Below are positions 7,420 through 24,774 of a stretch of DNA of 64,000 nt, in pieces. The stretch's first letter is position 1, and the number at the start of each line of letters is the position of its first letter. The translations under genes were made by a program, and so were the position numbers. A model generated the notes under the pieces. The model saw only the letters and a list, made by a program, of their open reading frames with translations. It had not been told where the DNA came from and searched no databases. Source of the stretch: Escherichia phage vB_EcoM_TH18; sequence record ON075799. One strand, 5' to 3'.

Positions 7420-7598
7420 AGGTTAAAATGATTTCTGATTTTTCCGATGTTGCTGGATATCCAAAAACAGGAGATATTCTTGAAGTAAGAGAAGAAATCT
7501 TTAATGGTAGTTTTCTTGAGTGTTACTCTTGCGAATGGAATGGGAAAAGACTTGATATCTATCCATACGAATGCGAAGAGGTATCAGACAATGCTTAA
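7416..7598 (+). CDS. hypothetical protein
   Basis: 60-aa ORF, translationally coupled. Confidence 0.4.
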   Translation: MKVKMISDFSDVAGYPKTGDILEVREEIFNGSFLECYSCEWNGKRLDIYPYECEEVSDNA

Positions 7599-8112
7599 GT
7601 ATAAAGTTGGTTGCTTAATAGAGGCAGCACTTAAAAGGGATGTTAATGTGATAGCTCATGGTTGTAATACATTTTGCACCATGGGGTCTGGAATTGCTAA
7701 AGAAATAAAGAATGCATTCCCAAAAATGTATGCTGAAGATTTAAAGACAGAGAAAGGTGATCGAACAAAACTGGGCAGTTATACTTGGGCTGTCATGAAC
7801 GAAGGTAAGCTGGCGGGTTTTAATTTGTACACACAATACGGCTATAATGGGCGTAGAATGGGTGTTAGAGATTTAAATTATAACGCCCTTTACGATTCTT
7901 TAGCAGCAATGCGAGATTGTTTGCAAAGGCACACAGATGGCTTTATGTCTGATTATAAGATCGGGCTGCCAAAAATAGGTGCTGGGCTAGCAGGTGGGGA
8001 TTGGAAAATCATAGAAACTATGATAGAATCTGTTCTCCATGATTGTGATGTGACAATTTATGTTTTAAATAAAGAGGAGATCCCAGATGGCAAAAGAGAA
8101 CATGCATCCTGA
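7591..8112 (+). CDS. macro-domain protein (ADP-ribose binding/hydrolase family)
   Basis: 'VNVIAHGCN...MGSGIAKEI' and 'IGLPKIGAGLAGGDW' macro-domain signatures; ATG at 7591 with GAGG RBS. Confidence 0.65.
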   Translation: MLKYKVGCLIEAALKRDVNVIAHGCNTFCTMGSGIAKEIKNAFPKMYAEDLKTEKGDRTKLGSYTWAVMNEGKLAGFNLYTQYGYNGRRMGVRDLNYNALYDSLAAMRDCLQRHTDGFMSDYKIGLPKIGAGLAGGDWKIIETMIESVLHDCDVTIYVLNKEEIPDGKREHAS

Positions 8113-8281
8113 TATTGCTTACGATAAAATTGCGGAAGCAATTAAAAGTATTGACCCAAAAATTGTAGATGTGCTGGATCGTAAAGATGCTATGAGCGCA
8201 ATTTATGACGCTTGCTATGAAGTTCTGTGGCAAGATGGTATGGAAGATATTGACGAGGTAGGGGCCAATGATGGAGAGTAA
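8087..8281 (+). CDS. hypothetical protein
   Basis: 64-aa ORF. Confidence 0.4.
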   Translation: MAKENMHPDIAYDKIAEAIKSIDPKIVDVLDRKDAMSAIYDACYEVLWQDGMEDIDEVGANDGE

Positions 8282-8654
8282 ATCTGTGACAGGCTTATCG
8301 AAAGATACATATATTTGTGGGAAGAGATATGCTGGTATCCTGTTTGGTGCTGAACCCTATTTTGGTTTTGGTTATACAAAAGATGTTCGATGCATTTGTG
8401 GATACTTAGCAGATGATCTCAAAAAGCGTGGATTTAGTGGTTCTAGTATCAGGACTTCTGTTGTCGAAAGTCTGATTATGCACGATGGAGAAATCTATGC
8501 TATTACGATGAACAGCGCCTATCGCTTAGGTAGCCTTCAATTACAACATTTTATCTCCAGTCCTGTGTGGAGTCAGGAAATCACGAAACTTCTTGCCCAG
8601 GCAACTCTTGGTGTGACTTTTATTAATAAGGAAGATAGTAATGCAAGCAACTAA
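8268..8654 (+). CDS. hypothetical protein
   Basis: 128-aa ORF. Confidence 0.45.
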   Translation: MMESKSVTGLSKDTYICGKRYAGILFGAEPYFGFGYTKDVRCICGYLADDLKKRGFSGSSIRTSVVESLIMHDGEIYAITMNSAYRLGSLQLQHFISSPVWSQEITKLLAQATLGVTFINKEDSNASN

Positions 8655-9675
8655 GTACCCAAGCACTAGTCAATTTCGCAATGTTATCCGAGCGGTTAAT
8701 GACCGTCTGACTTATGATGGTCGTGATGAGAATGGCAATATAAAGCGTAAGGTTGCCTCTCCAGATCAATATCTCATTTCTTATGTAGGAACAGTTAAAA
8801 TTCACGGGACTAATTGCCGTGTAGTCTTTAATTCTGAAAATGAGGTTGTATACCAGTCCAAAGAACGCGTTTTGTCTTTGGAGGAAGACAATTATGGGTT
8901 TATGGCCTTTATGGTTGAAAAAGACCATAAACCCCTGCTGGGGCAAGTCAAGCAGATCTGCGAAGATCGGGGTATTGAATTTAAGTTCCCAGTAGAAATC
9001 GCTGGGGAATTTGCAGGGAAAGGTATCCAGAAAGGTGTTGCGGTATCTGAAATCATGCCTTTCTTTACTATTTTCCGTGTTGCAGTGGGGAAAGAAAATG
9101 ACCATCGGAAATGGCTAGCTTTAGACGATATTCTTGGCATTGGATTACCAGAACAACGTATTTATAATATTTTAACTTTTGGTAAGTGGGAACTGGATAT
9201 TCCTTTTAACATGCCAGAGACAGTGCAATCAGAAATTGCACAGATTACCGAAGGTGTGGAAAAAGAGTGCCCAGTAGGTAAATATTTTGGCGTATCTGGT
9301 GTTGGTGAGGGTGTGGTATGGACACCTAAAGATCGTCACTTGGCACATGTTTCTTCACTTTGGTTTAAAGTGAAAGGGCAAAAACATTCTGTCTCTAAAG
9401 TGAAAACCCTAGCTGCTGTTGATCCTGTGAAACTGCAATCTATCAAAGATTTTGTGGAGTATGCAGTTACTGAGAACCGTTTACGACAAGGGTTGCAAGA
9501 AATTGGATTGGACATCGCATCTCTGGGGGCATTTATCGCATGGGTTAACCGCGATATCAACAAAGAAGAAGCAGATGTGCTGGAAGCCAACTCTCTTTCT
9601 ATGAGAGATGTGGCGAAGTTCACAACAAACAAAGCCCGTAGTTGGTATATGGAACAACTTAACGAGGTGTCTTAA
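8641..9675 (+). CDS. RNA ligase, Rnl2-like (nucleotidyltransferase)
   Basis: motif I 'KIHGTN', motif IV 'EGVVW', motif V 'FKVKG'. Confidence 0.7.
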   Translation: MQATKYPSTSQFRNVIRAVNDRLTYDGRDENGNIKRKVASPDQYLISYVGTVKIHGTNCRVVFNSENEVVYQSKERVLSLEEDNYGFMAFMVEKDHKPLLGQVKQICEDRGIEFKFPVEIAGEFAGKGIQKGVAVSEIMPFFTIFRVAVGKENDHRKWLALDDILGIGLPEQRIYNILTFGKWELDIPFNMPETVQSEIAQITEGVEKECPVGKYFGVSGVGEGVVWTPKDRHLAHVSSLWFKVKGQKHSVSKVKTLAAVDPVKLQSIKDFVEYAVTENRLRQGLQEIGLDIASLGAFIAWVNRDINKEEADVLEANSLSMRDVAKFTTNKARSWYMEQLNEVS

Positions 9676-15868: not shown

Positions 15869-16043
15869 AGTCGAAGACTTTACAGATTTGAGTCAAGTTT
15901 CAACTGAAAAATTGTTGAAACTACGAGATGTTGCACGAGACAACTTTCTTGAAGCAAAGTTGTCTGCCGAAGAGTCGTGGCAGAGATACGAAGACATTCT
16001 AAATGAAATTAAGGAGCGAGTGCATGTTGAAGAAGCTCTTTAA
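15861..16043 (+). CDS. hypothetical protein
   Basis: 60-aa ORF. Confidence 0.4.
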   Translation: MFKVEDFTDLSQVSTEKLLKLRDVARDNFLEAKLSAEESWQRYEDILNEIKERVHVEEAL

Positions 16044-16350
16044 GTGGTTTTTCCCACCACAACAAAAAGCCGAAAAAGTTTTTGATTTTACTGAGTATAG
16101 GGGTAATGGTCATGATATTACACTGCGTCTCAACCAGTCTGGTGAGGTTGCAGAAGCTGTTATCATCTTATCCGAGGATGTAGAAAAACCGGAGAATGGT
16201 GATTTTGTTATCGTCAATCTTGATGACATTTTTGGTGGTGGGAAAGAAGTGACGACATATGTGATTAGTCACATAGAGTATGTTTCTTCTGAGATCTCAA
16301 GAGCAAGTTTAGTCTTGAGGAAGGAGGATACTAATGCAGACAAAAGCTGA
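16024..16350 (+). CDS. hypothetical protein
   Basis: ATG at 16024 preceded by AAGGAG; upstream in-frame ATG at 16003 less likely. Confidence 0.45.
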   Translation: MLKKLFKWFFPPQQKAEKVFDFTEYRGNGHDITLRLNQSGEVAEAVIILSEDVEKPENGDFVIVNLDDIFGGGKEVTTYVISHIEYVSSEISRASLVLRKEDTNADKS

Positions 16351-17088: not shown

Positions 17089-17310
17089 ATGGTTAAAAAC
17101 ACTGTTAAACTCATTGAGTTCAAAATTAGCAAAACAAAAAGAGAAGAGGTAGAGAGCAAACTGGCCGAACTTCTTGATGATGGTTATGACATTGCAGGAC
17201 AGCATGAAGCTGAAGGTTGGCTGGTGTATACTTTAGTGAAAAGGGTGGCCCAAGTACAAGACATTCCTTACGGGGCTGATGGAAGCCCAGTCCACTCGGC
17301 GTTGCATTGA
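17089..17310 (+). CDS. hypothetical protein
   Basis: 73-aa ORF. Confidence 0.4.
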   Translation: MVKNTVKLIEFKISKTKREEVESKLAELLDDGYDIAGQHEAEGWLVYTLVKRVAQVQDIPYGADGSPVHSALH

Positions 17311-18079
17311 TTTCTGGTATACTCAAAAGGCCCACGTTACGGGCCTGTTTTCTGGTATGGGAGGTGTATTGAGTGACACAGTTTTATGCATGTTTGACGG
17401 ATCAGGTATCATGGGCCACGAATGGGCAAAAAATGGGCACAAAGTGATATGCCTTAATTATGATGGCGCTGATCACGGCGGTTATGAAAGTATCAGAATA
17501 AAACACAAAAACATAGAATACATTAATGTTTGGATAGATGACCAGTTTAACCCAGTAGAGATAGGGCTTTGTAAGCCAAGTATTATATTCGCATTTCCAC
17601 CATGTACAGACATGGCTGTTAGTGGTGCAGCGCATTTCGCAAGAAAAGCTGCAAAAGACCCTTTATTCCAGATAAAGGCTGTAAATACAGCAAAGGTGGC
17701 AGCAAGGTTGGCAGATGAATACGGCTGCCCTTACATGATAGAAAATCCAGTTAGTGTTCTATCTTCTCTGTGGCGTAAACCAGATCATTCATTTCATCCT
17801 TATGAGTACGGCGGGTATCTATCAGAGAATGATGTTCATCCATTTTTTCCAGAATACATAAAACCAAGAGATGCCTACCCTAAGAAGACTTGTTTGTGGA
17901 CAGGTAATGGTTTTAAGATGCCGGAGAAATTACCTGTCCCCGTGTTAAGCGGGTATTCTGATCAACACCTAAAGCTGGGTGGGAAATCAAAAAAGACAAA
18001 GGTTATAAGGTCGCTAACCCCAAGAGGATTTGCCAAAGCCGTATTCCTATATAATGATTTTAGGAGGGTTGGTGGATAA
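17279..18079 (+). CDS. DNA (cytosine-5)-methyltransferase-like protein (short)
   Basis: motif I-like 'LFSGMGG', motif IV-like 'FPPCTDMAVSG', motif VI-like 'ENPVSVL'. Confidence 0.4.
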   Translation: MEAQSTRRCIDFWYTQKAHVTGLFSGMGGVLSDTVLCMFDGSGIMGHEWAKNGHKVICLNYDGADHGGYESIRIKHKNIEYINVWIDDQFNPVEIGLCKPSIIFAFPPCTDMAVSGAAHFARKAAKDPLFQIKAVNTAKVAARLADEYGCPYMIENPVSVLSSLWRKPDHSFHPYEYGGYLSENDVHPFFPEYIKPRDAYPKKTCLWTGNGFKMPEKLPVPVLSGYSDQHLKLGGKSKKTKVIRSLTPRGFAKAVFLYNDFRRVGG

Positions 18080-18221
18080 AAATGTCAAGATTCTCACAGG
18101 AACTAGTATTTCAGAATTAGAATTAAAACTAAACACTTGGTTTAGAAAAGGTTACTGTATTTCAGGTGGCATATCTGTGTGTAATGGCTGGTATATGGCT
18201 GTAGTCACCAAACCCTTCTAA
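18030..18221 (+). CDS. hypothetical protein
   Basis: 63-aa ORF overlapping end of previous gene; weak. Confidence 0.3.
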   Translation: MPKPYSYIMILGGLVDKNVKILTGTSISELELKLNTWFRKGYCISGGISVCNGWYMAVVTKPF

Positions 18222-18230
18222 GGAGAAGAG

Positions 18231-21158
18231 ATGAAGATTACAAAATGGGGGGCTGGTGCATACTTTGAAGGTGAGAACCCAAAAGCATTCCGTCCTGAAC
18301 GAAAAAGTGGTGGTAAAGTGAATTATCAGAAAAAAGAAGAAGAAACCGTAGAGTCTGTCCTAGATAGCACAAGGATCCTGGCTGTCCCCCAAATGGATAT
18401 TAGTTTAGATGCAGCTAAGTACTTTAAGATCAGATCTGCAACAGATTTGAAAGACGGCACTACAGTAGTGGCAACATATCTTCCATATTATGACAAATAT
18501 GGGAAATTGACAGGGTACAAGAAACGAGACTGGTCTGTCCCAAAAGAAAAAAAAGGTCATTTCTCTGTTGTTGGCACAGTGAAGGCCTCCTCTCAATTTT
18601 TTGGGCAACATGAAGCCGCTATGGGATCTGGTAAAAAACAGATCTTTATTGTTGAGGGGGAGGGTGATGTAACGGCTGGCTGGCAAGCTGGGTTTGAGTA
18701 TATTAAATTTCTTCATAGTAATCCTAATACGTCACGTTCAGTACGTGAGTGGGCAAGTAATGCTTTAAAAGGCATCAAAGCCATTCAGGATGGCGAAGAG
18801 GTTTCTAATTGCCCGACATTACCTTTTATCGGGTTGAACTGTGGAACAGCCAATGCGGTGGATACATTTGCCCACAACGAAAAGTTTATCAGGGAATATG
18901 AAAAGATTGTCCTTGGTTTAGACAATGATGAAGCCACAGCAAGGGAAAAAGAACACAGAATTAAGAAAGGTAAGGAAGCCACAGATGATGTTGCTAGTTT
19001 TTTGTTGTCTGACAACATCTATGTTGCACGATACCCGAATGAACGCAATGACCCAAATGGTGTTAAAGATATCCGGGATATTTACAAAAAAGGTAAGTGG
19101 ATGGATATCTGGAACATGTTTGCTAAAGCGCAGGATAAATATGTTCCTGACAAATTGATTGGGTTGGAGAGAATATCTATTGAAAATCTCCGTAAAAAGA
19201 AAAAAGATGGCGTTCCGTTGCCTTGCTTTCCTCGTTTGTATGAACTAACAAGAGGCCCACGAACAGGAGAATTGTGGACACTGACAGGCCCATCTGGAGC
19301 TGGGAAATCAACTTTCTCAAGAAAGATTGAATACGCAATTATCGAGTACCTCCGTAACATGGATATTCCCCGACTAGACGGATGGAAAGAGAACGAGAAG
19401 ATTGCAATTATCCGTCTAGAGGAGGATGAAGAGGAGTCTGTAAACAGTCTATATGCTGAGGAGTTAAAAATTGACCCGAAAGCATTTGTTGCAGACCCAG
19501 AGCAATTTCTTACCGATGAGCAGCACTTAGCGATACACCAACGGTGGATTGCCGAAGATAAGGTTAAAATTTTTGACCACTTTGGTTCAATACCGACTGA
19601 CCAATTGCTACAAAAATTGAAACAGATGGTTTTCCTTGATGGGTGCAGATGGATTATCTTAGATCACTTGTCGATGGTAATATCAGGATTAAAATCTGAT
19701 AACGAGCGAAGAGATTTAGATAACATCATGACGGAATTGGCTGCCTTCTGCAAAAAATATGACGTGTTTATCCTCAGTATCAGCCATATGAAGCGTAAAG
19801 AGATACAGATTCCAAAAGATAAGGATGGTAATCTCTTACCATTTTGGTATCCTGTGCGGAAAGAGGATCTTCGTGGTTGTCTTAACGGTTATGTAGAGTT
19901 CCTTACACCAGAAGGTTGGGTGCAGTTAAAAGACTACACACCGGGACAAAAAGTGGCACAGTGGGCAGACGGGGAGATATCTTTTACTGACGATGTTGAG
20001 CACATTAGACTTGAATGTCGAGAGGATATGTATGCATTCCGCAATTCAAGTTTTGAGATGACTGTCTCTGGAGAGCATCGTGTTCTACTGGATGTGGGGG
20101 GTGAGAAACAAGTTCTCACTGCGGAAGAGATTGCTAAACTGGCAAAATACGCTAGTTTTAAAGAACGATCTTCTATTGTCAGACATTACAGTGCTGGCAA
20201 TTTCCAGACATCATTAACAGAATGGCAAATCCGCGCCATGGTGATGTTTGCCGCTGATGGATGCTATCACAGCAATGGTTTGTGTAAGATGGAATTAAGA
20301 AAAGAGAGGAAAATAGAAAGAGCAACTAAAATTCTTGACAAACTTGGCGTGCATTATTCTCACGCAGTAAATAAAAGAGGGAACACAACCTTCAGGACTA
20401 AGGCATTGACAGAGAAAAAACCTCTACATCTATGCCATAATTGGTTTATTGAACCAAGCCATACCCTCAAAATTCTACTGGATGAGGTGTTCTTGTGGGA
20501 CGGTAGCGATAAAGGTGATAAGGGAAGAGAGTTTACTTCTAAGTATCGAGAAGAGTGTGATGTTGTTCAACACGCTGCTCATGCGAATGGAATGAGCACA
20601 AAACTCTACTCACGAACAGTAAATGGTGTTACATACTACACATTAAGTGTGTATCGGGAAGGTTCTTGTAAAAATAAGACATCTTTACGATCTCTTAAAC
20701 TGGAGAGAGAGCCTTCATGGGATGGATATAAATACTGCTTCAAAGTACCATCCAGCTATTTTGTTGTTCGACAAAACGGTGTGGTGTTCGTCACAGGAAA
20801 TAGTGCAGCACTCGAGCAGTTATCATGGGTTGTATTAGGTGTTGAACCTGAAGAACTCCCTGATCGCTCTCGTGGGCGTATTCGTAGCGTTGTAATGAAA
20901 AACCGTCCACATAAAAAATTAGGTATAGCGGATACTCTGATTATGGATGATAATGGTCAGTTTTCTGATGCATCTGGTTGGGTGTGGGAAGATGGTATGT
21001 TTAAACTTAATGGGGAGGTAATGCTAAGACCTAAATCAATGATTCAAAGTCTGGAACTTGAAACACCTGTGGGGAAAATTGCTGTTTCTGTTCCTCAACA
21101 AGAACCTGCTGTTGTTATTGAGCAACCTGAAGATTTAGATAGCGATTCTCCATTTTGA
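18231..21158 (+). CDS. primase-helicase (T7 gp4-like; Toprim + DnaB-family helicase) containing an intein
   Basis: 'EGEGD'/'DND' Toprim-like, Walker A 'GPSGAGKST', Walker B 'IILDH', helicase motif H4 'DLRG/SAALEQ' interrupted by a 308-aa insert. Confidence 0.7.
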   Translation: MKITKWGAGAYFEGENPKAFRPERKSGGKVNYQKKEEETVESVLDSTRILAVPQMDISLDAAKYFKIRSATDLKDGTTVVATYLPYYDKYGKLTGYKKRDWSVPKEKKGHFSVVGTVKASSQFFGQHEAAMGSGKKQIFIVEGEGDVTAGWQAGFEYIKFLHSNPNTSRSVREWASNALKGIKAIQDGEEVSNCPTLPFIGLNCGTANAVDTFAHNEKFIREYEKIVLGLDNDEATAREKEHRIKKGKEATDDVASFLLSDNIYVARYPNERNDPNGVKDIRDIYKKGKWMDIWNMFAKAQDKYVPDKLIGLERISIENLRKKKKDGVPLPCFPRLYELTRGPRTGELWTLTGPSGAGKSTFSRKIEYAIIEYLRNMDIPRLDGWKENEKIAIIRLEEDEEESVNSLYAEELKIDPKAFVADPEQFLTDEQHLAIHQRWIAEDKVKIFDHFGSIPTDQLLQKLKQMVFLDGCRWIILDHLSMVISGLKSDNERRDLDNIMTELAAFCKKYDVFILSISHMKRKEIQIPKDKDGNLLPFWYPVRKEDLRGCLNGYVEFLTPEGWVQLKDYTPGQKVAQWADGEISFTDDVEHIRLECREDMYAFRNSSFEMTVSGEHRVLLDVGGEKQVLTAEEIAKLAKYASFKERSSIVRHYSAGNFQTSLTEWQIRAMVMFAADGCYHSNGLCKMELRKERKIERATKILDKLGVHYSHAVNKRGNTTFRTKALTEKKPLHLCHNWFIEPSHTLKILLDEVFLWDGSDKGDKGREFTSKYREECDVVQHAAHANGMSTKLYSRTVNGVTYYTLSVYREGSCKNKTSLRSLKLEREPSWDGYKYCFKVPSSYFVVRQNGVVFVTGNSAALEQLSWVVLGVEPEELPDRSRGRIRSVVMKNRPHKKLGIADTLIMDDNGQFSDASGWVWEDGMFKLNGEVMLRPKSMIQSLELETPVGKIAVSVPQQEPAVVIEQPEDLDSDSPF
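19878..20801 (+). mobile_element. intein (308 aa) in helicase motif H4
   Basis: begins Cys 'CLNGYVEFLTPEGW', ends '...VVFVTGN' followed by Ser; flanks rejoin to 'DLRG-SAALEQ' (cf. DnaB 'DLRESGSIEQ'). Confidence 0.6.
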
Positions 21159-21353: not shown

Positions 21354-23390
21354 ATGAAAGGACTTTTTTTAGCCGATACAGAGGCTGATGGATTATTAGA
21401 AGAGGCAACTAAATATCACTGCACACTTTTTAAAGAATATGCTGTAAATAACTGGGTGTTGTTTCTCGATCCTGCTCACAAGGAATATCAGAGTGCAGTT
21501 AATTTTGCACGCAGCAAGGAAGGTGTTAATTTACGAATCCTTTCTTATGATGATTTTTACTCTTGGTTACAGACCGAACCAAGAGGGATAGCAATACATA
21601 ACCTGTTCGGCTATGACTTACGCCTGTGGAAAAAACTTTCTGGGATTGAATATGATATGTTCAAAGACCCAAAATGCATGGGGACGATAGGTAATAAACA
21701 GGTAAATCTTTACGACACTCTTTCAATGAGTCGTGTTCTTTACCCAGACCGCCCATTGCCTAATGGCTGCCCAGACTCTGTATTGAACCCTGTAACAGGA
21801 AAACGTGACAGGGTTGGGCCACACGGCTTATTGGCATGGGGTTATCGTGTAGCAAACAAGAAAGTGCAGATTGATGATTGGCGTAATCAGCCATTGTGGG
21901 AATATGTAAACCGTGTATGGGAAGACGTTATCATTAACGAACTTGTGTGGAAAGCTCTTATTGATGAGTCAAATGGTACGCGATGGCCTGATGACAAGCA
22001 GTTTATGTATACTGATAAACCTCACGGGATGCACCAGATTAATTGGAAAAATGCATTACGTAGGAGAATGCTCACAGACTATTTGATGATAGAGCAAGAA
22101 ATACAGGGTGTATACTTTAATCGGGAGGAGGCAGAAAAATTAAGAGATCGCATAGATAAGATGATGCGAGAAATTGAAGAAGAGGTAGAACCACTTCTTC
22201 CAAAAAAAGAGATGACGAAATCCCAACAACCAAAATTCCCAGCTAACCCTTTTGACACAGCGGGCAATATATCTCATCATGGGTGGAATTGGTTGGAATA
22301 TAAACTTGGCTATCCTGTTAACAGAGAAGCTCTGGAGTTCAAGGCTCCACCAAAAACAGCCTTTAAGAGTAACGGGGATGTAAGTGCAGCAGGGGAGAGA
22401 TATTGCATCCAGAATGGCATTGAAGATCCGGCTTTATACGGTGATTTCATTCGTTCCCAGCGAACCAAAGAGAACACACTCGAACCTTTACCGCCAGATC
22501 TTCTAGAGAAGGCTAAAGAAGACCTTCGAAATAGAAAAATGCCAGATTTAATGGTTCCAATGAAAATCTCTAATCAAGATGATATTAAAAAATATTTGAT
22601 CAAAGATGCTGGTTGGAAACCTACACTGTGGCGTGTAAAAGATGTTACTAAGGATCAATTTAAAAAGGCCCGTGAAGATTCTGAAATCGATGTACTAGTT
22701 AAGAAGTACATAGAAGAGTTGGCAGAATCTGAATATAAATCTCTTATTCTTGAATACCTTAATGATTCAGATGAGAAATTCAACATTTCAGAACGTAAGT
22801 TTGACCATCGCCATGCATCTGAAAGGGGTTATTCAGAGATATTTAAGAAATTTCGGCGCAAGGCACGCCAGTTACCGACATCTCCTCAACTAAAAGATAA
22901 TTTTGGGCATCTGTGCCCAAATCTGGAGAAAATTGATGTGCATATGGCAAAACAGATTGTTAAGTGGCTATCACTTCGTAACAGGCGATCTGTTTTAGAC
23001 CCAATGGATGAGGATAAGACGGATACAGGGTTATTAAATCACCCTCGTTTAGACATTGACGGAAAACTCCCAGCACGTTTTTCTGGAATCACTAACACGG
23101 GCAGGTGCAAGCATACTGTTTGCGCAAACATGCCCAAGCCTGATCCGAAGGTCTTGTTGGGAAAAGAAATGCGGGGTCTTTGGACAGTCCCTGAAGGCTA
23201 CTACCTGATGGGTTGTGATGGATCTAACTTAGAAGGTATGATTGCCGCAGCAGGAGCTTTTGAGTTTGATGGCGGTGAATATTTACGTATCATGATGGAA
23301 GAGGATGCCCATGAACGAAATGCAAGAGCATACACAATAGCCGCAGGAAAGGAGGTAACACGCTCTGGAGGAAAGGGGATTACGTATGGT
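21354..23390 (+). CDS. DNA polymerase (family A, T7 gp5-like) exon 1: 3'-5' exonuclease + polymerase motifs A and first half of B
   Basis: N-term 'MKGLFLADTEADGLLEEATKYHC' like T7 gp5 'DIEANALLESVTKFHC'; motif A 'CDGSNLE'; ends '...RSGGKGITYG' then stops in all frames; ATG 21354 with AGGAGG (ORF-track start 21312 less likely). Confidence 0.7.
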
Positions 23391-24124
23391 TAATGATAGC
23401 CCCCTTACAAAGTAATTTGTAAGGCGCACCCATTGAATTGCTGGGAAGTCTGACCGAGTTATGTCGAAGATAATCAGCAGGTAAGCGAATGCTTCCCTCT
23501 TACAAAAGGAGGGAGAATATGAGTACATTTTGTTGTATAATCTGCGGTGAGCAATGTGTTAAAACTGGTAAAAATCAAAAAGTATGTCTCTCTGAAGGCT
23601 GTAAAAGAGAATATCCAAAGATAAAAACCAGAGAATATAGACGCAGAAAGGCCGAAAAAGAAAATAGGCTTGATAGAGTTGGCATAGGAAAAGGTGGTGG
23701 GCAACCTTGTGGAAAATTGTCCAAATTTTATAAAAATGGTATATCGATGTTTCGTAAGTTATCCCCTGTCATAAAGGAACAGAGAAGATACTGTAATAGA
23801 TGTAATAAAGATCTTCTTTATGCAGGTAAGGATGAATGGTGCGTTCATCATATTGACCATGACAGGACGAATAACGAAATAAGTAATTTTGAATTACTTT
23901 GTAAAAAATGCCATCAAATAGAACATAAATGTTGGGAAGCATTCGAAACTTCAACGACTAGCCGAAAGGCGTAGGGCCAAGCGGTGAGGGAAACCTCCAG
24001 TCTTTTAGACTGCCGAAGCGGTGGGCATCCTGAAAAGGATGAAGATATAGTCTGATCTGCATAGAAATATGTAGCAGTTCCTAAGAGGACGGGCATGGTG
24101 TAGCGAGCCATGTTGAACAATATG
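23391..24124 (+). mobile_element. group I intron 1 (with HNH ORF)
   Basis: splits motif B ('...ITYG | IMYGAQAPKIA'); upstream exon ends in T, insert ends in G; shares 'AATTGC-GGGAA' and 'GATATAGTCTGA' elements with intron 2. Confidence 0.55.
23519..23974 (+). CDS. HNH homing endonuclease (intron-encoded)
   Basis: 'CVHHIDHDRTNNEISNFELLCKKCHQIEH' HNH motif with zinc-binding Cys pairs; RBS AAGGAGGG. Confidence 0.65.
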   Translation: MSTFCCIICGEQCVKTGKNQKVCLSEGCKREYPKIKTREYRRRKAEKENRLDRVGIGKGGGQPCGKLSKFYKNGISMFRKLSPVIKEQRRYCNRCNKDLLYAGKDEWCVHHIDHDRTNNEISNFELLCKKCHQIEHKCWEAFETSTTSRKA

Positions 24125-24457
24125 ATCATGTATGGAGCACAGGCTCCTAAGATAGCCGCAATGCTGGGTATCCCCCTTAATAGAGCACAGGCTGTAATAG
24201 ATGCATTCTGGGATAGTAACTTCGGGTTGAAAATGCGTAGGGAGCGGTTGGAAAAATTCTGGGAGGCAAATGGGAGACGCTATATTCCAGGCATGGACGG
24301 GCGTAAAATTTGGACTCGTTCTAAACATTCTCTGCTGAATGCTTACCAACAAAACGGTGGCGCTTCATTGTTTGACCTCATGGGAGTCCTGTTCCATTGG
24401 GAATTGGTAAAACGGGGATGGTACGACCAAGGTGTCAGGAGGGTTATCTATTACCAT
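24125..24457 (+). CDS. DNA polymerase exon 2 (rest of motif B to start of motif C)
   Basis: 'IMYGAQAPKIAAMLGI...RVIYYH' ; ends exactly before 'DE' of motif C. Confidence 0.6.
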
Positions 24458-24774
24458 AAACAATATTGTGGCTTCATGCAGTAATGCATGTCGAAAACCT
24501 CTCTAATTGACGGGAAAGCTAAGTTGATTCTTATAATTTATTGTGTTATAAGGACAATATGCCAATCCGCAGCGAAGCATCCCTACGGGATGAACGTTCA
24601 ACGACTATCGAAAGCACACTAGTAATGTGTAAGTGAGTAGAGTAGGCCAGCAAGTGCGGTCCAAACGGGAGGAACCCTTGAAAAAGGGTTATGATATAGT
24701 CTGACCCACAGGAGAAATCTTGTGGCTATGCACGTAACGGTGCGGGGGAGAGTAGCGAACTCCTTGAACTGGTG
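24458..24774 (+). mobile_element. group I intron 2 (ORF-less)
   Basis: splits motif C 'YYH | DEIQV'; ends in G; conserved elements shared with intron 1. Confidence 0.5.

Follow-up and report, generated by a model that had tools for sequence, protein, structure and literature searches.

In the 64,000-nucleotide stretch of DNA from Escherichia phage vB_EcoM_TH18 (sequence record ON075799) that we analysed as a whole, hereafter the window, positions 17369–18079 of the plus strand carry a gene that very probably encodes an active, S-adenosylmethionine (SAM)-dependent orphan DNA cytosine-5 (C5) methyltransferase of the small 'Dcm-like' phage family phrog_757. The gene lies within a co-oriented block that also contains rIIA/rIIB, a Dda-like helicase, small proteins of unknown function, a primase-helicase and a DNA polymerase. 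The mechanical open reading frame (ORF) at this locus is longer and runs from an ATG to the stop codon at 17279–18079 (+, 266 aa). An original prediction, made from the letters without database searches, had described this longer frame as a short C5-cytosine methyltransferase-like protein with three recognisable motifs, which in the ORF translation are found at aa 24–29 (FSGMGG, nt 17348), aa 106–116 (FPPCTDMAVSG, nt 17594) and aa 155–161 (ENPVSVL, nt 17741). The coding sequence (CDS) and the signals in front of it are the following:

17369..18079, + strand: most likely true CDS, small Dcm-like C5-cytosine DNA methyltransferase; TTG start, 236 aa, 711 bp, GenBank UDW09777.1
17279..17368, + strand: upstream in-frame extension of the ORF, probably untranslated; shared at first with the last part of the upstream gene (stop at 17310), the remainder being intergenic spacer
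17328..17354 (stem 17328–17346), + strand: terminator-like GC-rich hairpin, AGGCCC-loop-GGGCCT, plus T-run, from a pattern scan; in-frame translation '...GLFS'
17360..17365, + strand: Shine-Dalgarno sequence GGAGGT, 3 nt before the TTG at 17369; identical in phage Av-05

As judged from the sequence, the true gene is most likely 17369–18079, beginning at TTG, rather than 17279–18079. The 236-aa CDS is annotated, with coordinates equal to those in the window, in the GenBank record of Escherichia phage 18-1-2 (OK136180.1), an Avunavirus of the Vequintavirinae; two further records are identical over the 7-kb region searched, Av-05 is approximately 94–95% identical, and all three identical GenBank records label the CDS 'hypothetical protein'. 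We favour the TTG because of the extents of the homologues, the GGAGGT, a frame break in Av-05 and the presence of the hairpin in the spacer. Alignments with homologues begin only around ORF residues 31–35, the extension 17279–17368 is missing from essentially all of them, and nearly all homologues start 2–6 residues ahead of the conserved (V/I)xxS(L/M)FDGSG strand. By inspection of the sequence, no Shine-Dalgarno sequence precedes either the ATG at 17279 or the ATG at 17357, and the former lies inside the upstream gene with an overlap of 32 nt. In Av-05 (a 94%-identical phage), a 1-nt indel and stop codons interrupt the reading frame upstream of ORF codon 21, while the GGAGGTGTATTG stretch is unchanged.

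The string FSGMGG, which the original prediction had read as motif I, falls within the 58 nt that separate the stop codon of the upstream gene (17310) from the TTG, where it overlaps the T-run of the hairpin and the Shine-Dalgarno sequence. In the pattern scan, the hairpin at 17328–17346 is followed by GTTTTCTGG, and in the frame of the ORF the T-run is translated as L-F-S and the Shine-Dalgarno region as G-M-G-G, with GGAGGT giving the final 'GG' of FSGMGG. Because these two signals translate to it, FSGMGG is a look-alike arising from regulatory RNA signals and not motif I. The in-frame mimic reads LFSGMGG here and LFSGIGG in Av-05. One could argue that the ATG at 17279 gives the longest ORF, that LFSG(M/I)GG is strikingly close to the canonical motif I and that it is retained in Av-05, so that all 266 aa would be translated and FSGMGG would serve as a functional, second SAM-binding motif. 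We consider this very unlikely, given the extension's absence from homologues, its broken frame in Av-05, the poor initiation context of its ATG, and the location of the true motif I, FDGSG, 9 residues downstream of FSGMGG. The conservation of the FSGMGG stretch at the nucleotide level would follow from its encoding the conserved hairpin, T-run and Shine-Dalgarno sequence; the hairpin is kept in RNA folds of both 18-1-2 and Av-05, although the Av-05 indel sits in its loop and shifts the frame. The 266-aa ORF as a real protein was rejected on the start positions of homologues, the frame break in Av-05 and the overlap with hairpin and Shine-Dalgarno sequence, and the length of about 266 aa given in the original prediction is replaced by 236 aa. 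As a separate observation, the hairpin and T-run stand directly before the Shine-Dalgarno sequence of the methyltransferase gene and may be a terminator or attenuator between it and the small gene upstream.

The gene is of an already recognised kind, a common phage family called Dcm or DNA methyltransferase. A profile search, which the original prediction had proposed as a check, matched the protein to phrog_757, 'DNA methyltransferase', at E=6.1e-88 (ORF aa 32–259 against positions 14–218 of a 247-position profile), and we found 4,489 homologues in a large protein collection, typically of 225–250 aa, a few of which have weak PF00145 matches. The family amounts to 1,074 cluster representatives at 50% identity. 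Matches by tblastn were obtained in 1,509 phage records, many of them annotated as DNA methyltransferase, cytosine methylase or 'Dcm-like', and the phages with a family member span Escherichia, Klebsiella, Salmonella, Shigella, Campylobacter, Vibrio and other hosts. This is a conserved, real gene and not a chance reading frame. The Av-05 orthologue is 97% identical and bears the RefSeq name DNA methyltransferase; the annotation of the copy in Salmonella phage Jersey points to similarity with 'Dcm' of phage TLS, and the rV5 genome paper does not mention methyltransferases.

Within the 236-aa protein, the motifs are arranged as listed here, where invariance was called from 54 closer homologues and a broader set comprised 73 sequences:

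17393..17407, + strand: true motif I, F9-D-G-S-G13, predicted SAM-binding loop after strand beta1; F9, G11, S12 and G13 nearly invariant
17594..17626, + strand: motif IV, FPPCTDMAVSG, with the predicted catalytic Cys79 at nt 17603–17605; P77, P78, C79, T80, S85 and G86 invariant
17741..17761, + strand: motif VI, E125-N126-P127-VSVL; E125, N126 and P127 invariant; aligns with the ENV motif of M.HhaI
17882..17914, + strand: motif VIII-like stretch, K172-K173-TCLWTGNGF, on strand beta7; K172, T174 and W177 invariant
17924..17971, + strand: short hypervariable loop, aa ~186–201, of the 'GYSDQH' flavour, the only candidate remnant of a target-recognition domain; holds all indels of the family alignment; predicted local distance difference test score (pLDDT) ~79
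17975..18046, + strand: conserved C-terminal block, LGGKS...IRSLTPRGFAKAVF, equivalent to motifs IX/X and predicted to close the cofactor pocket; invariant residues, helices 208–214 and 219–229

In the family as a whole, motif I is spelled (S/C)(L/M)FDGSG, and FDGSG aligns with 'SLFDG' of DNMT3A and with 'SLFSGAGG' of M.HaeIII. The two other motifs of the original prediction turned out to be genuine, PPC(T)D and ENP being invariant in the family, and it was also right that the Cys is followed by Thr instead of Gln, T80 being invariant in the closer homologues. Motif IV aligns with GFPCQ of M.HhaI and with SPCND of DNMT3A. The QxRxR of motif VIII is seemingly replaced by K172-K173 on beta7, an equivalence taken from a superposition with DNMT3A by the authors of the phage K42 study described below, and by eye the stretch resembles 'RARYFWGN' of DNMT3A. 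The invariant residues of the C-terminal block are L203, G204, G205, K206, T210, K211, I213, R214, S215, P218, R219 and G220. At least 90% of the 54 closer homologues share K173, and across the 73 sequences, down to approximately 32% identity, G86, E125, P127 and K172 are invariant and C79 is kept in at least 90%.

An AlphaFold2 model built on the 54-sequence alignment (pLDDT 90.4; predicted TM score, pTM, 0.89) shows an alternating beta/alpha core of the Rossmann type, with motif I placed between beta1 (residues 4–8) and a helix at 14–21. As modelled, the methyltransferase has the fold of a C5-methyltransferase catalytic domain. In a Foldseek search of the PDB, the top 50 matches were DNMT3A, DNMT3B and DNMT3C catalytic domains only (E ~1e-6, TM score ~0.43), and DNA methyltransferases ranked above Dnmt2 in both fold searches. 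Aligned by hhalign with single sequences, the family profile gave E 2e-4 for DNMT3A and the weak values 0.057 for M.HhaI and 0.061 for E. coli Dcm; in the profile alignments, motifs I, IV and VI fall in register with DNMT3A, M.HhaI, M.HaeIII and E. coli Dcm. The M.HhaI and DNMT3A sequences used for comparison were 100% identical to PDB chains. Searched against PDB sequences, the family profile gave sub-threshold matches only, to M.HaeIII and DNMT2. The core motifs of the superfamily (FxGxG, Pro-Cys, Glu-Asn-Val) are thus present in variant form, with PCT for PCQ and ENP for ENV, while only approximately 25–30 residues with one short helix separate beta7 (174–179) from the LGGKS at 203, in the place where a target-recognition domain would be. 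The protein is a member of the C5-methyltransferase superfamily by fold and core motifs; it lies outside the PF00145 model and is without a canonical recognition domain. It is a minimal methyltransferase with almost no target-recognition domain, a variable loop of ~16–30 residues being all that lies between motif VIII and the C-terminal block, and in motif spelling and in fold it comes nearest to the catalytic domain of DNMT3.

Two homologues have been studied experimentally. In phage K42, which is KarlJaspers-like, every escaper from retron Ec86 had disrupted a 711-bp dcm gene, and the toxicity of expressed K42 Dcm was confined to cells with the retron (10.1101/2023.08.16.553469). By liquid chromatography coupled with mass spectrometry (LC-MS), the same study found high 5-methylcytosine (5mC) in multicopy single-stranded DNA (msDNA) with wild-type K42 Dcm and not with the C82A/E128A/K175A/K176A mutant, and defence was lost upon mutation of the CCTGG in the msDNA (10.1101/2023.08.16.553469). 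The triggering of retron Ec86 by K42 Dcm was restated as established in a 2026 paper. The KarlJaspers (Bas06, MZ501090) protein bas06_0055, annotated 'Dcm-like C5 cytosine methyltransferase', has 236 aa, carries C82, E128, K175 and K176 as K42 Dcm does, and shares 55% identity with the window protein from end to end (E 8e-90). The residues of the K42 quadruple mutant correspond to C79, E125, K172 and K173 here, and all four are conserved. The second homologue, gp52 of Pantoea phage AAS23, is likewise 55% identical to the window protein (E 3e-91). A BLASTP search with gp52 had found no conserved domain, while HHpred gave 99.7% to the Shigella C5-methyltransferase 3ME5, and AAS23 virion DNA is reported to be Dcm-methylated on the basis of restriction analysis (PMC8004638). 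Since that evidence is restriction analysis of virion DNA, a contribution of the host Dcm to the methylation is possible.

The K42/KarlJaspers enzyme resembles the window protein in its length, its phrog family and its situation as an orphan gene among early/replication genes. The two differ in that KarlJaspers is a siphovirus of the Drexlerviridae and the window phage an Avunavirus myovirus, and in that the loop at aa ~186–201 is of a 'DNPGW' flavour in K42/KarlJaspers, as it is in AAS23, and 'GYSDQH' in the window protein. Of this pair, 5mC formation and retron triggering are known from K42 only.

The gene, its family, its fold and the conservation of its catalytic residues are established here, and we infer the activity, the target site and the biological role of the window methyltransferase from its homologues. 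If the protein works like the canonical C5 methyltransferases to which it is homologous, SAM would be bound by the FDGSG loop together with the conserved C-terminal block, and the target cytosine would be flipped into the pocket; Cys79 of PPCTD would then attack C6 of the cytosine while Glu125 of ENP protonates N3 and Lys172/Lys173 stand in for the motif VIII arginines, and the methyl group would be moved to C5. The location of the gene in an early/replication block fits methylation of replicating phage DNA. By analogy, the target is likely to be CCWGG, and the benefit is likely the protection of replicating DNA from EcoRII-type restriction. The suggestion in the original prediction that this might be a minimal DNA methyltransferase therefore fits the protein, while the self-protection it attached to that enzyme is plausible and goes no further.

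Several observations weigh against an active, CCWGG-methylating enzyme. Single-protein searches of Pfam (even at E<=10), NCBIfam and PDB sequences gave no match; the protein does not reach the gathering score of PF00145, and weak matches to that model were seen in 14 of the 73 family members, with a best E of 1.2e-5. Pairwise similarity to E. coli Dcm was not significant, and for that reason 'Dcm-like' is best taken as a functional label and not as a statement of orthology. CCWGG is not secure as the target because the recognition loop differs in flavour from that of both studied homologues. Relative to a maximal-order Markov expectation over the whole window, CCWGG has an observed/expected ratio (O/E) of 0.45, approximately two-fold under-represented, compared with 1.03 in KarlJaspers, which would be odd if the sites were fully protected. 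The K42 study took the CCWGG site from E. coli Dcm by assumption, and in that study the host Dcm failed to trigger the retron (10.1101/2023.08.16.553469), suggesting that the phage enzyme differs in site or substrate. Lastly, in the BASEL study the methyltransferase genes of phages showed no simple relation to resistance to restriction, and Vequintavirinae were described as exceptionally susceptible to restriction-modification systems. The loop flavour, the CCWGG depletion, the assumed K42 site and the two BASEL findings make CCWGG and an anti-restriction role extrapolations.

In the same word count, the O/E was 0.43 for GGWCC, 0.63 for CCGG, 0.64 for GGCC and 0.74 for GATC, and these four words and CCWGG are also under-represented in Av-05; KarlJaspers has genes for a Dam as well as a Dcm-like enzyme, and there CCWGG and GATC occur at expectation.

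Some of these points would be accounted for if the enzyme had the same chemistry and another target, that is, if it methylated C5 at a non-CCWGG site or preferred hairpin or single-stranded DNA, because of its different variable loop. The change from 'DNPGW' to 'GYSDQH', the CCWGG deficit relative to KarlJaspers and the activation of the retron by the K42 phage enzyme, and not by the CCWGG-methylating host Dcm, all point this way. On the other hand, the remainder of the protein, including the long conserved loop at 143–173, is very similar across both loop flavours, and GGWCC is as depleted as CCWGG, so that the deficit may reflect a general avoidance of palindromes. We regard such a change of target as possible, though on balance rather unlikely. 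A more radical departure, in which the protein would not be a DNA methyltransferase and would instead be an RNA m5C methyltransferase, like the tRNA enzyme Dnmt2, or a catalytically dead DNA-binding relic, could be entertained for a protein with no recognisable target-recognition domain and no Pfam match. It is highly improbable in light of the catalytic residues being conserved in the family down to approximately 32% identity, the methylation of msDNA by the K42 homologue and its abolition by the quadruple mutant of predicted catalytic and substrate-binding residues, the reported Dcm methylation of AAS23 virion DNA, and the ranking of DNA methyltransferases above Dnmt2.

The original prediction had also raised the idea of an enzyme repurposed for base modification, which here would mean that it starts a cytosine hypermodification, either by CmoX-like carboxymethyl transfer from carboxy-S-adenosylmethionine (Cx-SAM) or by providing 5mC for a TET-like dioxygenase. 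CmoX, a phage DNA cytosine C5-carboxymethyltransferase (PDB 8yf3), is defined by SPPC and Arg350 and is usually encoded beside cmoA and cmoY; Cx-SAM is native to E. coli, and a basic residue at the Asn position of motif X gives Cx-SAM use in CmoX and in engineered M.MpeI (PMC12783734). In the window family, the candidates for the position of Asn304 in M.HhaI, which in CmoX is an Arg that binds the carboxylate of Cx-SAM, are K206, R214 or S215; K206 and R214, both in the motif X region, are invariant, and the K42 LC-MS assay covered 5mC only. Nevertheless, DNMT3A also has an Arg in 'GRSWSVP', yet uses SAM. In place of the CmoX signature SPPC, moreover, the window protein has F76-P-P-C79, with F76 nearly invariant, and the K42 homologue yields 5mC. 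Among 31 window ORFs scanned for partners, a subset of the phage's ORFs, neither cmoA nor cmoY turned up, nor did a TET/5mYOX, glycosyltransferase or hydroxymethylase gene; 6 of these ORFs were compared with both PHROGs and Pfam, 9 with PHROGs alone and 16 with Pfam alone. The annotation of Av-05 likewise lists none of them. There is no adjacent 5-methylpyrimidine dioxygenase among the neighbours named at the outset, and KarlJaspers, AAS23, Jersey and Av-05 have no conserved gene partner in common. The susceptibility of Vequintavirinae to restriction-modification systems likewise speaks against hypermodified DNA. We therefore do not find support for repurposing, and give hypermodification only a slight chance; the preferred reading remains that of an orphan DNA C5 methyltransferase.

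Compared with known enzymes, the window protein is short, with 236 aa against the 327–472 aa of E. coli Dcm/M.EcoRII, M.HhaI and M.HaeIII. It is without the target-recognition domain of approximately 80–120 residues of canonical type II C5 methyltransferases, and it has PCT, ENP and KK where the canonical enzymes have PCQ, ENV and the RxR of motif VIII. It differs from CmoX in having FPPC, in the absence of cmoA and cmoY from the scanned ORFs and in that a studied homologue makes 5mC. With the catalytic domain of DNMT3A/DNMT3B, to which it shows approximately 13–18% identity at a TM score of about 0.43, it has in common SLFDG, PC(N/T)DL, an RS in the motif X region and a small recognition domain; DNMT3, for its part, carries regulatory domains and works on CpG as an oligomer. 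The resemblance may stem from specific ancestry or from convergence of enzymes with small target-recognition domains, both being candidate causes. It is a speculative and improbable idea that the 236-aa family is a minimal kind of C5 DNA methyltransferase able to recognise DNA with no target-recognition domain at all, perhaps as a DNMT3-like dimer using the 143–173 and 186–201 loops. Among viral and prokaryotic proteins, the family could then stand nearest to the DNMT3 type, and the specificity or substrate of the Avunavirus 'GYSDQH' form would be unlike the CCWGG of E. coli Dcm, for instance another site or hairpin or single-stranded DNA.

A number of observations were made on other genes of the window. 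In a different frame, a small conserved ORF at 18030–18221 (+), 63 aa as listed, overlaps the methyltransferase gene at its 3' end; this ORF matches phrog_17689 (E 1.5e-29 over aa 16–63) and is annotated with 49 aa in Av-05. The primase/helicase at 18231–21158 (+, 975 aa) contains an intein of approximately 308 aa (about 19878–20801), extending from Cys550 to ...TGN857, with Ser858 next; in Av-05 the orthologue, of 666 aa, lacks the insert and is 98–99% identical on both sides of the intein site. The insert itself matches PHROGs named 'PhoH-like' and 'ribonucleotide reductase', probably because members of these families contain inteins. The DNA polymerase gene at 21354–24484 (+) is split, with parts at 21354–23393 and 24113–24484 flanking an HNH homing-endonuclease gene at 23519–23974, and in Av-05 the polymerase is broken into at least three parts, accompanied by several HNH genes; a split polymerase together with HNH genes suggests introns or free-standing homing endonucleases. 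Upstream of the methyltransferase gene, proteins of 108 and 73 aa encoded at 16024–16350 and 17089–17310 (both +) match PHROGs labelled 'DNA ligase', a name they also carry in the Av-05 RefSeq record. This label is probably a propagated misannotation, because 108 and 73 aa are far too short for a ligase. Further away, at 8268–8654 (+), a 128-aa protein matches phrog_16099 'methyltransferase' (E 1e-59) and has no Pfam match; its gene lies just upstream of, and overlaps, the RNA ligase 2 gene at 8641–9675, next to a macro-domain protein at 7504–8112. The cumulative GC skew has its maximum at ~32 kb, at the switch from plus-strand early/replication genes to minus-strand genes.

As a discovery the gene carries little weight, since the phage family is very common and biochemical evidence exists for two homologues. 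Its points of interest are modest ones, namely a family outside Pfam and NCBIfam, the near lack of a recognition domain, the specificity and a possible role as a trigger of retron Eco1. There is also a methodological lesson, in that a terminator T-run and a Shine-Dalgarno sequence read in frame can mimic an FxGxGG motif. For annotation, the 'hypothetical protein' can be renamed C5 DNA methyltransferase, with its start at 17369. For the biology of the phage, its DNA may resist EcoRII-type enzymes, and a predicted side effect of the enzyme is the triggering of retron Eco1/Ec86; since homologues trigger this retron, the window phage may be sensitive to it.

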